Below are positions 37,994 to 44,321 of a stretch of 64,000 nucleotides of DNA, piece by piece. The stretch is from Alphaproteobacteria bacterium (lineage in GTDB: Bacteria; Pseudomonadota; Alphaproteobacteria; G965222575): positions 1,088,001-1,152,000 of the forward strand of contig OZ244958.1 of assembly GCA_965222575.1 (NCBI GenBank), read 5' to 3'. The notes below the pieces were generated by a model, which was not told the DNA's origin, ran no database searches, and saw only the letters and a list, made by a program, of their open reading frames with translations. The position numbers were made by a program, and so were the translations under genes. Every line of letters begins with the position of its first letter. The first letter of the stretch is position 1.

Positions 37994-38239
37994 ATGATAG
38001 TTGTTAAAATGTCTCATACAGAAGAGGAGTCCTTAAAACAATGTCTTCGTTTGAAGAAGGCATTGGATGTTTTGTATCAATTGTTGATGGAGCTTAGGCA
38101 AAGAGCGTTACATGAGAAGAGGGATGGAGTGAATGAAGCTGGTGTTATGATGATAGTGTTATCAAAGCGCTTGACAGGCTTCCATGCATTGCTCAAAGCA
38201 GCGCGCAAGGAAGCTAATAAAATAAAGCATAGACACTAG
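37994..38239 (+). CDS. Small helical hypothetical protein, paralog of 55000-55236
   Basis: G-rich RBS; shares D.LY.LL..L......EK.DGV.E with ORF 55000. Confidence 0.75.
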   Translation: MIVVKMSHTEEESLKQCLRLKKALDVLYQLLMELRQRALHEKRDGVNEAGVMMIVLSKRLTGFHALLKAARKEANKIKHRH

Positions 38240-38466
38240 ACTTTGCCGCCGCTTTTCTGTCAGTTATGGGAAGGGGATTAATTATCTCGGAAATCAGTCT
38301 TATCGTTACAATGAGAAGAATTTTCTGTCTTTGACAAGTTTGCGCCATCGCATAGTGCCGATTTCGCCATTGGGAGAAGGCCCTCGTTGCTGTTGAGTCG
38401 GGCGGGTAGGCGGGGTAGGTACTAGTTATAGCTTCCATTCCAATATTGTTGTGCTATAATTAAGGC

Positions 38467-38495
38467 TTGACAAACAAGTATTTTTATGCTATATT
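38467..38495 (+). promoter_or_regulatory. Sigma70-type promoter inside the array insert
   Basis: TTGACA-17 bp-TATATT with an extended TG. Confidence 0.75.
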
Positions 38496-38498
38496 TTC

Positions 38499-38715
38499 AA
38501 AATAAAGCAGATACATAAAAAGGTCAAAACAATGTTTCTAAAGGAAGAAATTAAGAGTATAGAGCTTTATTTTCTCCCAAAGCATTAAAAATGCAAGCAT
38601 GGAGAAAAAAAACTTTTAAGGAAAAACCTTTAAAGAAAAATCCTAAAAGTTAAACGAATTCCTCTGTAGTTGTTGTTGGAATAGAAAGGGAAGGCAAGAG
38701 CCTTCCCTTTCTTTA
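38499..38715 (+). ncRNA. Putative structured small RNA (about 215 nt) embedded in the CRISPR array
   Basis: Promoter upstream, three or four complementary stems, terminal hairpin; see findings. Confidence 0.5.
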
Positions 38716-38716
38716 T
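38683..38716 (+). terminator. Intrinsic terminator, possibly bidirectional
   Basis: AGAAAGGGAAGGC-AAGA-GCCTTCCCTTTCT, a perfect 13-bp stem followed by T-rich sequence. Confidence 0.8.
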
Positions 38717-39527
38717 ATGGGTTATAGCTTCCATTCCAATATTGTTGTGCTATAATTCTGTGCCATAACAGTGCTGTACCTGCTCTGTTATAGCTTCCAT
38801 TCCAATATTGTTGTGCTATAATTTAGCCATTTCAGTCTATATACAGTCTATGTTATAGCTTCCATTCCAATATTGTTGTGCTATAATTAAGACTCAGCAC
38901 TTAAGGCTACACTCAGAGTTATAGCTTCCATTCCAATATTGTTGTGCTATAATAAAATCCTCTCCGGCACTGCTAATTCTTACGTTATAGCTTCCATTCC
39001 AATATTGTTGTGCTATAATCTTGCTCGTACAACTCACGCAAATCCAGGAGTTATAGCTTCCATTCCAATATTGTTGTGCTATAATAGTTCTAAGGGATGA
39101 GGTAAGTGTCAACCCGTTATAGCTTCCATTCCAATATTGTTGTGCTATAATCCCTGCTTGAGGTACTCTTCAATCTCCATAGTTATAGCTTCCATTCCAA
39201 TATTGTTGTGCTATAATGGGGGGTGGGTTAGAAGACATTGAATCAATGTTATAGCTTCCATTCCAATATTGTTGTGCTATAATAATTCTTTGATAGCTGT
39301 TTCCCCCATGCGAGTTATAGCTTCCATTCCAATATTGTTGTGCTATAATAAACTAGGGAGGGAATCATGGTAGAAATATGTTATAGCTTCCATTCCAATA
39401 TTGTTGTGCTATAATCTTAACATCCTTGACGACATTGAGAAGATAGTTATAGCTTCCATTCCAATATTGTTGTGCTATAATATACCGGATGTAAGGCGCT
39501 GAAAAATGTACAGAAAGCCAAACAGTT

Positions 39528-39848
39528 TCAAAATAAAAGAAGCTGGTTGGCTTTCTGTTTTTCATTTTTTCTCTCTTTTCCTAACAAAATCTTCATCCGA
39601 CCATATTGCTTATCTGTTATCTGTAATGCTCTAATACTTCCCTTTGATGGAAGATTTTTTGTTAATCTTTGCATATGTTTCTCTACCCTGTCCTGCCCAT
39701 TACATACTCTAGCATATACTGAGTATTGTACCATCATATACCCATCTTTAAGTAGAAATTGTCGAAACCTCGTTGCTGAACGTTGCTCCTCTTTCTTTGT
39801 CACCGGAAGGTCAAAAAATACCCATAACCACATATAACGACCTATCAT
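39528..39848 (-). CDS. cas2: CRISPR-associated Cas2
   Basis: MW..VFFDLPV, FR.FLLKDGY.M.QYSVY.R, ITDKQY..M. Confidence 0.96.
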   Translation of the reverse strand: MIGRYMWLWVFFDLPVTKKEEQRSATRFRQFLLKDGYMMVQYSVYARVCNGQDRVEKHMQRLTKNLPSKGSIRALQITDKQYGRMKILLGKERKNEKQKANQLLLF

Positions 39849-40744
39849 TTTTCTCCGACTCTTTCCGGATACACCAACTCATCTGTACTCTGCTGACGAC
39901 TACAGATGCTCAAATATAAGACCACTTTATCGCACGATACCTGTAATGTATGCTCTTCTCCTCCCACCCGCACTAAGATATTAAGCAAATTACACAGCTC
40001 CTCTCTATGCGCTCTTGTCAACTCCCCTTCTTTCTTCAAGTCTCCCCTCTTGTATATCTCCAATACACAACTATCTACAAAGGGACGAAACATTTCTATC
40101 AAATCATCCGCTAAATTGTAACCATTCAATGTACTGCAATGATGTAACCCAAAACAAGGCAAAAATCCATAAGATACCAATGAACGCGATAGACACGCTC
40201 GCACAATTGCATATCCATAATTCAATGCCCCATTAATAGCATCTTCTCTCCCCCTCTTAAAATCATCAAATAAAGACGGCCAATATAAACGCGCCGCATA
40301 GGATTCCAGATTATCTCTATCACCTGATTTTACCCTACCTGATATCATTTTAAGTTTACGCGCCATATCCCTATCACGTCTTTCTAAACACTGTGCCTGA
40401 TTATTGATTTTATGCTTGATAATGAATTGCCAACTACGCTTCTTAAATGCAGATGTCCAGTTTTGTTGTACATGTGCCATTTCTGTTTGCCTATGGTGCT
40501 GGTGAAAAGGCATCAGTATCCCATTAGGCATGTGCTTCTCATCACACATCACCACCACAACACCATTATTTTGTAAATGAGATAGCAGTTTGGATGTTAA
40601 AGTAACCTGATGGCTTTCTAAAACCACACAGCCTATGTCTTCCGCTGGAATAGTACTTGAACCAGAGTCGTTGGTAATACAAACCTGACCATTTTTTACC
40701 GATAGGTGCGCTTTATTTTGTATGAGAAGAGATCGCCAAGACAT
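39845..40744 (-). CDS. cas1: Type II CRISPR Cas1
   Basis: MSWR, CDEKHMP.G, E..AA..YW, N.ALNYGYAI.R, NLADDLIE.FRP.VD. Confidence 0.96.
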   Translation of the reverse strand: MSWRSLLIQNKAHLSVKNGQVCITNDSGSSTIPAEDIGCVVLESHQVTLTSKLLSHLQNNGVVVVMCDEKHMPNGILMPFHQHHRQTEMAHVQQNWTSAFKKRSWQFIIKHKINNQAQCLERRDRDMARKLKMISGRVKSGDRDNLESYAARLYWPSLFDDFKRGREDAINGALNYGYAIVRACLSRSLVSYGFLPCFGLHHCSTLNGYNLADDLIEMFRPFVDSCVLEIYKRGDLKKEGELTRAHREELCNLLNILVRVGGEEHTLQVSCDKVVLYLSICSRQQSTDELVYPERVGEK

Positions 40745-43700
40745 TACGTTTCTCTCTCTTTTCCTGATCCTTACCTTTACAGCTTATAATGACAGCTTCC
40801 TTGTGGTAGCCTAAAATATCTATACGATATTTAGAAAATTCCTCTAGCCCTTGTACACCTATACCTCTTATGCGACCCTCTTTAAGGGTTTTTTCATGCG
40901 GCAAAATGCTAATGTTTCCATTTCTTCTGTCGGTACCACGAAAATAGCCTTTTCTCTCTTTTTTCCCTTTAAGGGTAACAACATAATCGTTTGTATAGAG
41001 GGAAAACAGAAAGTGTTTATCATCTATTGCTGGCCAATCTTTCTCTCTCTTCACCAGATTTAATCACTTTATTCGGCAGAGAGGGGTTTTTACCAGCAGA
41101 ATGATGTGCGTATATCGGAACAAGATAATAGCCTCCTTTTTTAAATACCTTCTTACCCTTTTCATCCCGCACATCTTCTTCACAGAAAAACACATCCGTG
41201 CGAATCATCTCCCCCCGAGATACAATTCCTCCATTTATCTTTAATCCATCCTCCTTTTCCTCAGTGATAATGCGAATATGTTTGATTTCAGGGCCGTTAC
41301 TTCCATCTTTTCTTGGCATATATACTGGGGACGAAAAAGGATGCTTCTCTTTACCCTTTTCATTTTTCACAGGGGGGCTATCAAGCCGCTCTTTCAGCAC
41401 ATTATAAAGAGCGGCATTGCGTTCTTTATCTACCATCTTCTCCAGATCCCCTTTTTTGACCTTAGAGAGCACTATGCGTTGTACAATCCTTTCAGGATGT
41501 TCTTCTATCTCAATATGTGTCACACACTTATTATGAAGAAAAACAGGTTCTGAAAAAGCCTCTTTAGGGTTTTGATGATGGGCCTTCTTCAAACGCTCTT
41601 TTAGGAGTTGATACAACTCTTCATTGTCACCTTTCTTATCCACCAGCTTCTCTAGCTTGTCACTGGTGACCTTACAAAGCCGTAAGTGTTGTGTACGACG
41701 AGGACGAAGACTGCGCACAGTCTCTTCATGAGCAGCTCCTGTTATTTTGCAACGTCTTGCACGGCTTACAAAAACCTTCTCTACTGCCTCTATAGCATCC
41801 TCCCTAAAAGAATCCCATGCTTTTGGAATAAATTTACCCTGTTCCTTATATTTGTCATATTTATTCCAGTTGGTAAATTTCTGTACCATCTCTTGAGTAG
41901 AGGAGGCTACAATAATAGCATCCATGGCATGGTGAAGATTGTTATCACGATGTTTCTTCCCTAACCCCCACCGCCCTCGTAATTCTGCTGTTAACGCCCC
42001 ATTGCGGACTTGGACACGATTTTCATTTTCAGGGCCAAGTTTGAGATGGCTTTCAATGAAAGATTTTATTTCACGGGCAATGTACCTTGTATCGTTGAGA
42101 TTACGGGATTTAAACTCGTTTTCTTCCTCCTCTGTTAACTCCTCCATCAAAAGATGTCTTTTCTTTTTTTGTTGCCACTTAGGTAAATGATTAGCCATAT
42201 CCTCAAGGTCTGCAACATCTCGATCTATCCTTTGAAAATACGCATAGGGAATATCATTCCCTGCGTCTTGGTTTTCTGTCTTGAAAACAAGAACCTTATT
42301 CTGATAGGAATTATCAAATGTGCGACTTTTCGGTAAAATATGGTGAACTTCTGTTATGGCTCCATCACATACCTTTTGCGGCTCAATATATTTAAAAGAA
42401 AGGGCACATCTCTGTTCTTGATCTTTCCATAGACGATATCTCAAAATGTCTTCTCCTTTTGGCTCTCTACCTTCCAATTCCCGTATGTGGTTTTTAGCTG
42501 TTTCTCTCTCTTCTTCGTTCTTTTTTTGCTCCTTTTCAATATCAGAACGTGCTTTAGCAGATTTTCCTACCTCTCTAGAGAGTTCTATAAAGATAGACTC
42601 TGGCTTACCGTGTTTGCGAATACAAGCATTAACGACTTTGATAAGTTGAGCAATAGAGCGCCCCACAACCGGGTTAGGGATAAAGCCTTCATATGGCGGC
42701 AAGAGGTCTTCACTTCCTTTTGCTTTCTTAGAGTGGTGAAATCCCGCCTTTTCACAGGCCTCGTTATACAAATCCCCTTCTTCCATAAAGGGCAAAATCT
42801 TGCGAATGCACTTCAATGAAAGATGTAAAGTCCCACTAAAGGAAGTGATATGGCTTAGTTCTTCGGCTTCTTCATGAAAACCAATGTTTTTCAGCTTTTT
42901 GAGGATTTTTTTATCATCATGCTCAAAAGAAAGAATAGCAGCGGCGTGATCTAACCGGCCTCGTTTTGCGCTGTAGTACAGACTTTCGAAATCGGCTTCT
43001 GTCATCCCTGCTTTCAGTAAGGCCTCTTTCAAAATATGTCTATTTTTCAAGGTGACAAATATCTTTGTTGGTTTATCATTTTTTCTGTAAAAGTTTATAT
43101 GATGAACCTCACAGTCTAGGATTTTTGCCGCAGCAGTGAAAGTTACCCCGGTTTTGTCTTTCAGACATTTCTCATAAAGTTGTTTTTTCTTATCTGAAGA
43201 GATTGGCTTGTTCTTGACTTTAAGGTTGTTGAGTTTCCCCCAAAGAGCAAACAACTCTGCTGTAGGAGAGCATTTAGGTGCTCGTCTTTCCTTTGGAAAA
43301 AAGGTACATTGTCCTACTAACCCAGAGGAAGATTTTAAGGGGCGTTGGGTAAAGGCAAGGTCTTGAAACTTCTCTTGTAATTTCTCTGTGGCTTTTGTAT
43401 TGCCAAAGATACGTTGTTTCTCAAAAATGAGTTCTACCTCGTCTCCTAAATCATCGCGCTTGACTGTCCGTTCATAATGTCCTTCTCTATTCCGTTTCTT
43501 ATCACAAGTTGCTAGGTAGGCTCCGATAGTTTCTGCTTCTGCGGCTTCCTTTTCTCCTTGAAGTGTCTTAATACCACCTAAGGCCTTTGTGTTTTCCTTA
43601 TCTCCTGCTTCTTGCTTTTTGCTATTAGACTGATAGCCCCGTCGTTTTGCTATATGGAATAAAGCAGTAGCGAGTTCTTTATGGTCTAATAGCCTTTCTA

Positions 43701-43986
43701 GGGCCTCTTTTCGCAAGTTCCATGGGTTGCTTACACCAATTGCAGAAACTTCCAGCCCACGTTGCAAGAAGAGCTTTTTTATGGCGTTTTTACGACTAGC
43801 ACGGCGGTGAATAGTACGCCTTTGACTCCGAAATCCTCGTCTTTCTGCCGCTAAAGAGCCTTTATTTTTTGGTTTCTCTGCTGCATCAAAAACACGTACT
43901 CCAGCAAATGTTATCGTTTTCTCGGCTTTCTCTATCCCTGCAAATCCTACAGAAGCAATGCCTATATCTAACCCTAGCTTATACAT
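40713..43986 (-). pseudogene. cas9: Type II-C Cas9, frameshifted at about 41045 (988-aa ORF plus about 110-aa PAM-interacting part in another frame)
   Basis: LGLDIG RuvC-I, Arg-rich bridge helix, IELSRE, HHILP HNH, HHAMDA; the second frame continues with KDWPAIDD..FLFSLY.ND; no csn2 or cas4 present. Confidence 0.93.
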
Positions 43987-44010: not shown

Positions 44011-44040
44011 TTGACAATTGCTAGAGATTTATTCTACTCT
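44011..44040 (+). promoter_or_regulatory. Putative tracrRNA promoter
   Basis: TTGACA-18 bp-TACTCT, about 6 nt upstream of the anti-repeat. Confidence 0.6.
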
Positions 44041-44046
44041 AAAATG

Positions 44047-44163
44047 AACAATATTGGAACTGTTGTTATAATAAGAGTGGTGGTTCTATAACCATCACAC
44101 GCGGGGTAACTGTTTACAGTATCCCCTTCCCCTTCACGGTGCGCCGTGAGGGGGCTTTTTCTT
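44047..44163 (+). ncRNA. tracrRNA
   Basis: Anti-repeat AACAATATTGGAA-ctgtt-GTTATAAT versus repeat reverse complement AACAATATTGGAA-tggaa-GCTATAAC; followed by stem-loops and a CCCCTTCACGG/CCGTGAGGGGG hairpin with a T-run. Confidence 0.9.
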
Positions 44164-44321
44164 TACAGAAGATACCAGAGGTCATAGCAAAGGAGCAAAA
44201 TACTTCTCCCATGTTTTGATTCCCTCGCACAAGGGGGCTAGTAGACCAAAGCCTCCATAAGACTTTCTTAAACTCACCCATTTATCATAGGGAGTTCCAC
44301 AATTAAAATTAGGTGATAGAT

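Follow-up and report, generated by a model that had tools for sequence, protein, structure and literature searches.

The locus considered here lies in a stretch of 64,000 nucleotides (the window, to which the positions below refer) of the genome of an alphaproteobacterium (Alphaproteobacteria bacterium, assembly GCA_965222575.1, contig OZ244958.1, positions 1,088,001 to 1,152,000). It carries a type II-C CRISPR-Cas system, in which cas2 (39528-39848), cas1 (39845-40744) and cas9 (40713-43986, in two frames) were identified on the minus strand with Pfam, the cas9-cas1-cas2 set being accompanied by neither csn2 nor cas4. A gene for the trans-activating CRISPR RNA (tracrRNA) is found on the plus strand at 44037-44164, divergent from cas9, with an anti-repeat (44037-44072), a GC-rich hairpin and a run of T ending at about 44164. 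The duplex of this RNA with the repeat is calculated at -23.9 kcal/mol, a value reached by 3 of 300 shuffles. Next to cas2, an array of 13 identical 36-nt repeats occupies positions 38425 to 39481 of the plus strand. Its first two repeats (38425-38460 and 38721-38756) show 36/36 identity with one another as well as with the remaining 11 copies, and they enclose 260 bp of DNA (38461-38720, plus strand) that do not constitute a spacer. This insert, its content and its origin are the subject of the present analysis. The start-to-start spacing is 296 nt for the first pair of repeats and 65-66 nt for the remaining eleven, so that the other eleven intervals measure 29-30 bp. The G+C content of the insert is about 0.32-0.34, compared with 0.457 for the genome.

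In type II-C arrays, as described in the available text of Feussner et al. (2025, PMC12080349), every repeat has its own promoter, spacer acquisition takes place at the last repeat, and the oldest, "extra" copy is the one transcribed first. In the present array, repeat 1 is the cas-distal copy, at the oldest end, repeats 2-13 with 11 spacers of 29-30 nt follow (38721-39481, plus strand), and the last repeat is the one adjoining cas2. The 3′ end of every repeat is closed by GTGCTATAAT, an extended -10 element on the plus strand, which in repeat 1 faces the insert. TGCTATAAT, at the end of each repeat, is a candidate in-repeat promoter that would be read towards the cas2 end. No further copy or half-copy of the repeat occurs elsewhere in the 1.216-Mb genome. 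Upstream of the array, a G-rich tract, GGGCGGGTAGGCGGGGTAGG, abuts repeat 1 at 38395-38424, in the guide position of a would-be extraneous CRISPR RNA (crRNA); the helix predicted around this tract is no better than those of shuffles (z = -0.08).

The original prediction, made from the sequence alone, had placed 260 bp in a slot of about 30 bp between two undegenerated repeats. Besides the identity of the repeats, this arrangement was found again in a 326-nt contig of a public sequencing run (X1, which may be the source sample). The contig equals positions 38425-38750 with 0 differences and carries repeat sequence on both sides of the insert, and a 382-nt contig of the same run connects the left flank to repeat 1. 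It may nevertheless be imagined that a misjoin at the identical repeats put unrelated DNA into the array. Indeed, short-read graphs cannot order the slots between 13 identical repeats, no single listed run contig covers the whole stretch, and short contigs cannot fix the slot, the first-slot position resting on the single-contig assembly. However, besides the 326-nt contig, the depth in run X1 of the insert contig (20.1) resembles that of the flank (23.8) and of the cas2 side (18.5), and the genome is a single contig of 1,215,846 bp in which the insert is found nowhere else. A misjoin is therefore extremely unlikely, and the 260-bp non-spacer interval between perfect II-C repeats is confirmed as real.

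A second run (X2) covers the left flank up to repeat 1 as well as the cas2 side, with no contig over the insert; this gap is unjoined and is no evidence of absence. In this run, the spacer adjoining the last repeat differs from that of the window, the distal flank being common to both. The position of the difference, at the cas2-side end, fits the entry of new spacers at the last repeat. A 3612-nt contig of run X2 (depth 15) matches the spacers at 38888-38917 and 39416-39447, joined across 498 nt of the array. It has non-repeat sequence before the first spacer match, and it could derive from a strain with a shortened array or from a target element. Finally, both runs contain a second abundant relative over 38073-38228 (15 differences in 156 nt), which departs from the window directly after an 81-codon open reading frame (ORF) and thus is without the CRISPR locus at this site.

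The insert resembles a complete transcription unit. At 38467-38495 of the plus strand, a sigma-70-type promoter, TTGACA-17-TATATT, scores 11/12 and has a TG before its -10 element, in agreement with the near-consensus promoter of the original prediction. Such quality is rare: counting both strands, the genome has only 46 sites that score at least 11/12, of which 8 carry the TG, and when the insert was shuffled 20,000 times, 215 of the products contained such a site. Weaker promoter-like sites are not in excess in the region (8, as compared with 6.8 +/- 3.0 in shuffles). Transcription would start at about 38501-38503 and would give an A-rich, structured RNA of about 215 nt, with predicted ORFs of only 18 and 20 codons. 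The first ORF, MFLKEEIKSIELYFLPKH (38532-38588), is preceded by AAGG 8 nt upstream, and its frame contains no stop codon as far upstream as the repeat, giving 42 open codons. The second one, rich in lysine, is in a neighbouring frame (38591-38653). The predicted RNA folds with -54.1 kcal/mol, compared with -36.4 +/- 4.1 for shuffles (z = -4.3, 0/200 as good). Since the minus strand folds equally well (z = -4.6), folding does not choose the strand.

Two of the three stems proposed earlier are recovered, in both the minimum free energy (MFE) and the centroid folds: hairpin 1 (38570-38608), in which UUUUCUCC and GGAGAAAA pair around GCAUU/AAUGC, and hairpin 2 (38611-38651), formed by AACUUUUAAGGA and UCCUAAAAGUU with one bulged base. 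The third, a 10-bp stem between 38499-508 and 38564-573, is a perfect complement but is absent from these folds; as had been noticed, it competes in part with hairpin 1. Also present in these folds is a hairpin with 13 perfect base pairs (38683-38712, -22.5 kcal/mol), after which comes UUAUAUGG. This stem, which had been taken for a terminator, was found as described: it ends 8 nt short of repeat 2, and the 3′ arm falls inside the 25-nt guide position of that repeat. Its action as a terminator is uncertain, the T tract being poor: a terminator scan of the region listed two sites but passed over the hairpin, since T makes up just 4 of the 8 bases that follow it. The unit fills its slot almost exactly, with the -35 element beginning 7 nt after repeat 1 and the last stem ending 8 nt before repeat 2. 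The sequence thus supports the idea of a self-contained promoter-to-hairpin unit placed between perfect II-C repeats.

Several identities can be set aside for this unit. The insert is single-copy in the 1.216-Mb genome, where the next best match measures 16 nt (E = 0.25), and its ends, TAAGGC... and ...TATATGG, are not inverted repeats. It is therefore neither an insertion sequence nor a miniature inverted-repeat transposable element (MITE), a multi-copy form of which the original prediction had kept in mind. Decayed repeat-spacer units are rejected, no repeat copy with up to 12 mismatches being found inside the insert. Similarity to the leader, to the tracrRNA region and to the flanks stays within the range of shuffles, which speaks against a duplicate of any of these. 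For the leader in particular, a profile made from relatives finds the true leader (E = 0.48) without the insert appearing in the top 8 matches, and Cas2 has no protein-level match to the insert. TAAGGC and TTTCAAAATAAA are found 34 nt apart both after repeat 1 (38461-38510) and in the leader and cas2 end (39492-39540). The pairs at the two sites are offset by 10 nt, and homology is unsupported by the profile and by alignment. As for known RNA families, 0 of 24 Rfam matches at E <= 10 reach the gathering threshold; the best one, BTnc005, obtains 24.8 bits for a threshold of 174.8.

The distribution of the insert was then considered in genomes that are relatives at the class level, none being related at the level of genus, family or order. 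In 40 relatives, only two matches of 22-31 nt were obtained (E = 0.003-0.009), and 11 of 400 class-level genomes gave matches of 23-41 nt (E = 1e-4 to 1e-3), with nothing longer. These short matches are attributed to chance. No copy of the insert was found in phages and plasmids. A 26-nt pattern of the insert had 0 matches in metagenome contigs, and two patterns had 0 matches in viral contigs. A pattern taken from a hairpin arm did match a viral contig (L011, 9426-9455), where the same 13-bp stem forms a terminator after an unrelated gene. The flanks of that stem show no similarity, so that convergence or chance is retained rather than relationship. The only Cas9 relative in the species collection (L010) is 45% identical, and six metagenome arrays whose repeats belong to the same family (L012-L017) were reached through a degenerate repeat pattern. 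None of these seven related arrays contains a long interval, the spacing being always 66, 67 or 2x66. The distal end can be seen in six of them, and five of these have the usual mutated terminal repeat, which stands at normal spacing.

A further match comes from a 2066-nt contig of run X1. With a depth of 4, as compared with about 20 at the locus, this contig belongs to another organism. It matches positions 38562-38663 with 9 differences, lacks 38664-38677, and resumes over 38678-38719. The similarity ends within a base of the boundary between the insert and repeat 2, after which the contig continues with non-repeat sequence. On the other side of the match, the 30 preceding letters of the contig represent 38532-38561 in a form that has diverged further. 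By inspection, five of the differences listed come down to two shifts in homopolymer length, with one A missing ahead of ACTTTTAAGGA and one A added behind it. Four changes can be placed, namely these two shifts, the 14-nt deletion and A>G at 38596; none of them touches a stem, each being located in a loop or linker. Such stem-sparing changes are compatible with a conserved structure, though no covariation is seen. The insert unit, in whole or for the most part, thus also occurs without a repeat context in another, low-abundance member of this community. The lack of CRISPR association in related genomes, named by the original prediction as a reason to abandon it, is found in part.

This homologue bears on the possibility that a small coding gene has left its 3′ end and terminator in the insert, or that the insert represents a gene like the "morons" of prophages, now frameshifted, in which case the RNA structure would be incidental. 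The open frame of 42 codons running from the repeat boundary through the 18-codon ORF is in favour of this view. So are the 30 letters of the other organism before 38562, which would read as a similar peptide in the same frame; judging from these letters, about 7 extra bases would carry that frame into the one of the 20-codon ORF. Moreover, the 14-nt deletion of the other organism falls after the stop of the second ORF. However, no match to longer proteins was obtained for the 42-codon frame, and a 32-codon open frame (38555-38650) had 0 matches among 1.84 billion representatives at E <= 0.001. The predicted transcript start is downstream of most of the 42-codon frame, and the differences known so far, which alter the length of homopolymers, would be no less expected if the DNA did not code for protein. 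A decayed gene end is therefore regarded as improbable.

The state of the CRISPR-Cas locus itself has to be taken into account. The two frames of cas9, for which Pfam gives Cas9 domains, span 43986-41020 (988 aa) and 41054-40713 (113 aa). The frame breaks in a GAAGAGAGAGAAAG tract near 41040, at about codon 978, so that the last ~110 residues are cut off. In alignments with the uninterrupted Cas9 of a relative (1086 aa), the first part reaches residue 977 and the second begins at residue 981. The break could be real decay or a sequencing error in a (GA)n tract. Residues ~783-820 and ~833-866 (about 41400-41640) both align to residues ~855-910 of the relative, which suggests an internal tandem duplication of about 50 residues. 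In the array, the second-newest spacer (39350-39379, plus strand) is self-targeting: it matches positions 659502-659531 of the genome at 30/30 positions. The target site is the ribosome-binding site and start codon of a sucB-like gene, located after a sucA-like gene, and the bases after the protospacer are ATGCTCCT. A self-targeting spacer together with a broken effector is the familiar picture of a switched-off system. With its cas9 frameshift and its 30/30 self-target spacer, the locus is decaying. Comparison of the whole array with phages and plasmids gave no protospacer match. Between the last repeat and cas2, on the leader side, a hairpin of -26.8 kcal/mol (39510-39558, no strand assigned) overlaps the cas2 stop codon. 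The gap between cas2 and the array contains no ORF, and the neighbouring ORFs belong to no cas family.

Could the insert encode an RNA dedicated to the CRISPR system, that is, an addiction, regulatory or decoy RNA linked to Cas9, after the manner of CreTA, tracr-L or scaRNA? The location of the unit exactly between two perfect repeats, its strong promoter, unlikely by chance, and its stable fold would be in keeping with such a role. The same is true of its conservation, since the 3′ 160 nt are about 91-95% conserved in the second organism with the four placed changes outside the stems. However, several results speak against it. Four regions (the insert, the left flank, the leader and the promoter region of cas9 and the tracrRNA) were compared on both strands with 13 guides, namely the 11 spacers and two pseudo-guides preceding repeats 1 and 2; 0 of the 13 had a repeat-proximal seed of at least 8 nt there. 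Genome-wide, seeds of at least 13 nt comprised only the self-target and one 13-mer. An anti-repeat or decoy function is rejected on the grounds that the insert-repeat duplex (-18.5 kcal/mol) stays at the level of shuffles (-16.4 +/- 2.7; 69/300 as good), far from the 3/300 of the tracrRNA. Pairing of the insert with the tracrRNA and with the starts of cas9, cas1 and cas2 was no better than that of shuffles (16-34 of 60 as good). Tandem rare codons, a feature of CreT, are absent from the small ORFs. Like CreTA, the present unit would be a small RNA gene physically tied to CRISPR repeats. However, in the available text on CreTA (PMC9458426), partial complementarity to the creT promoter allows CreA to direct the effector there; no such complementarity was found here, and the effectors concerned are those of type I (and V-A), unlike the broken Cas9 of this locus. 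Because cas9 is frameshifted while the unit is intact, an active addiction module, which should not tolerate such a loss, is argued against. Finally, none of the seven related arrays carries such a unit, and the copy of the other organism is not followed by a repeat. A dedicated CRISPR-linked RNA is thus very improbable, and the toxin or regulator of the original prediction finds no support in these comparisons.

A further interpretation starts from the downstream end of the insert. The array proper would begin at 38721, the 260 bp would be the intergenic DNA that originally lay upstream of it, including a terminator or hairpin to suppress an extraneous crRNA, and repeat 1 would be a stray duplicate beyond this DNA. 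According to the available text of PMC12080349, which deals with C. jejuni NCTC 11168 and a survey of more than 650 systems, II-C arrays have terminators or guide-sequestering hairpins directly upstream of their first repeat. The present insert resembles such insulators by its stable hairpin directly before a repeat of a promoter-in-repeat array: the helix lies within 180 nt upstream of repeat 2, ends 8 nt before it and overlaps its 25-nt guide position, as in the layout described there. The mean upstream intergenic length given in that text, 247 nt, is also in line with this interpretation. Unlike these insulators, the hairpin segment is here preceded by a perfect repeat, and it has its own strong promoter and a weak T tract. 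As regards repeat 1, solitary repeat units are numerous, those of type II being mostly spurious duplications, in the available text of Shmakov et al. (2023, bioRxiv 10.1101/2023.03.03.530964), and the copy of the other organism, without a following repeat, would fit an ancestral locus free of CRISPR. On the other hand, repeat 1 is perfect (36/36), whereas the stray or terminal repeats of relatives are mutated in five of six arrays. In addition, no mechanism sets a full repeat exactly one unit-length ahead of a flank. The loose ends of the other organism's contig have no counterpart in this genome (best match 13 nt, E = 0.27), so that its 30-letter continuation does not simply represent the present locus minus a CRISPR island. 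Altogether, a native flank behind a stray repeat appears rather unlikely.

We favour, with about an even chance of its being right, the reading in which a single capture event placed non-CRISPR DNA containing a promoter-to-hairpin unit between two repeats, and this DNA now fills the array's oldest slot. This reading is suggested by the anatomy of the insert, its single-copy status, its absence from related arrays and its copy outside CRISPR. We infer that the captured unit did not evolve as a CRISPR accessory. Capture might have occurred through an aberrant integration by Cas1-Cas2, which would explain both the base-exact junctions and the duplicated repeat, or through recombination or integration at a repeat. 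Once in place, the insert would be transcribed from its own promoter and from that within repeat 1, and the hairpin located 8 nt before repeat 2 would stop or sequester the RNA from both promoters. With the 3′ arm of the hairpin in the guide position of repeat 2, no crRNA with a long guide would then arise from this repeat. By analogy, the hairpin of the insert would work like the upstream terminators and hairpins that insulate II-C arrays. The alternatives of a "mini-gene captured as a giant spacer" and of an "insulator", both mentioned in the original prediction, fit these findings.

Several points weigh against capture. The route is a matter of inference, and we know of no documented Cas1-Cas2 integration of 260 bp. 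The near-exact fit of the unit in its slot could reflect selection for function, and the hairpin is placed as in a native array flank. The promoter is too good for chance (215/20,000 shuffles), so that the unit may well still do something. The weak T tract of the 13-bp hairpin makes termination uncertain. Beyond the match, moreover, the contig carrying the homologue is known from two 30-letter ends only.

The insert combines known things in a new variant: long non-spacer intervals, solitary repeats and II-C upstream insulators. "Spacers" of at least 100 nt, mostly transposon-like, occur in arrays of E. coli, P. aeruginosa and S. thermophilus according to the available text of Kupczok et al. 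(2015, PMC4524480), and a phage integrates into II-A repeats in S. pyogenes in that of Varble et al. (bioRxiv 10.1101/2020.10.09.333658). Like these long "spacers" and II-A prophages, the present insert is non-spacer DNA bounded by CRISPR repeats; unlike them, it measures 260 bp, is single-copy and lacks a transposase, inverted ends and an integrase. With the solitary repeat units of Shmakov et al. (2023), it shares the presence of one repeat apart from the main array in a cas locus. In the mini-arrays described in the same text (bioRxiv 10.1101/2023.03.03.530964), the intervals are the size of a spacer, the distal repeat is often degenerate and cas promoters are matched in part, whereas the present interval measures 260 bp, both its repeats are perfect and no promoter match is seen. 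A search of the literature for giant spacers in CRISPR arrays found none, though the supplements of PMC12080349 and PMC4524480 (table S4) may hold similar cases.

It is tempting to go one step further and to imagine that in promoter-in-repeat Cas9 arrays the distal slot repeatedly serves for cargo. Whole transcription units, captured through Cas1-Cas2 or repeat recombination, would be retained there because their RNA and terminator govern the output of the first repeats or because the RNA has an action on Cas9, and the present unit, with stems conserved in a second organism, would be a working example. This more general idea is distinctly improbable. A single strain-specific case in a decaying locus is a curiosity, not a system, and a count of over-long intervals across type II arrays would show whether a pattern exists. 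However, if the capture reading is right, the repeats of a II-C array can accommodate DNA much longer than a spacer, joined to them with base precision, and a captured terminator can replace the native flank, thereby keeping stray transcripts from becoming guide RNAs.

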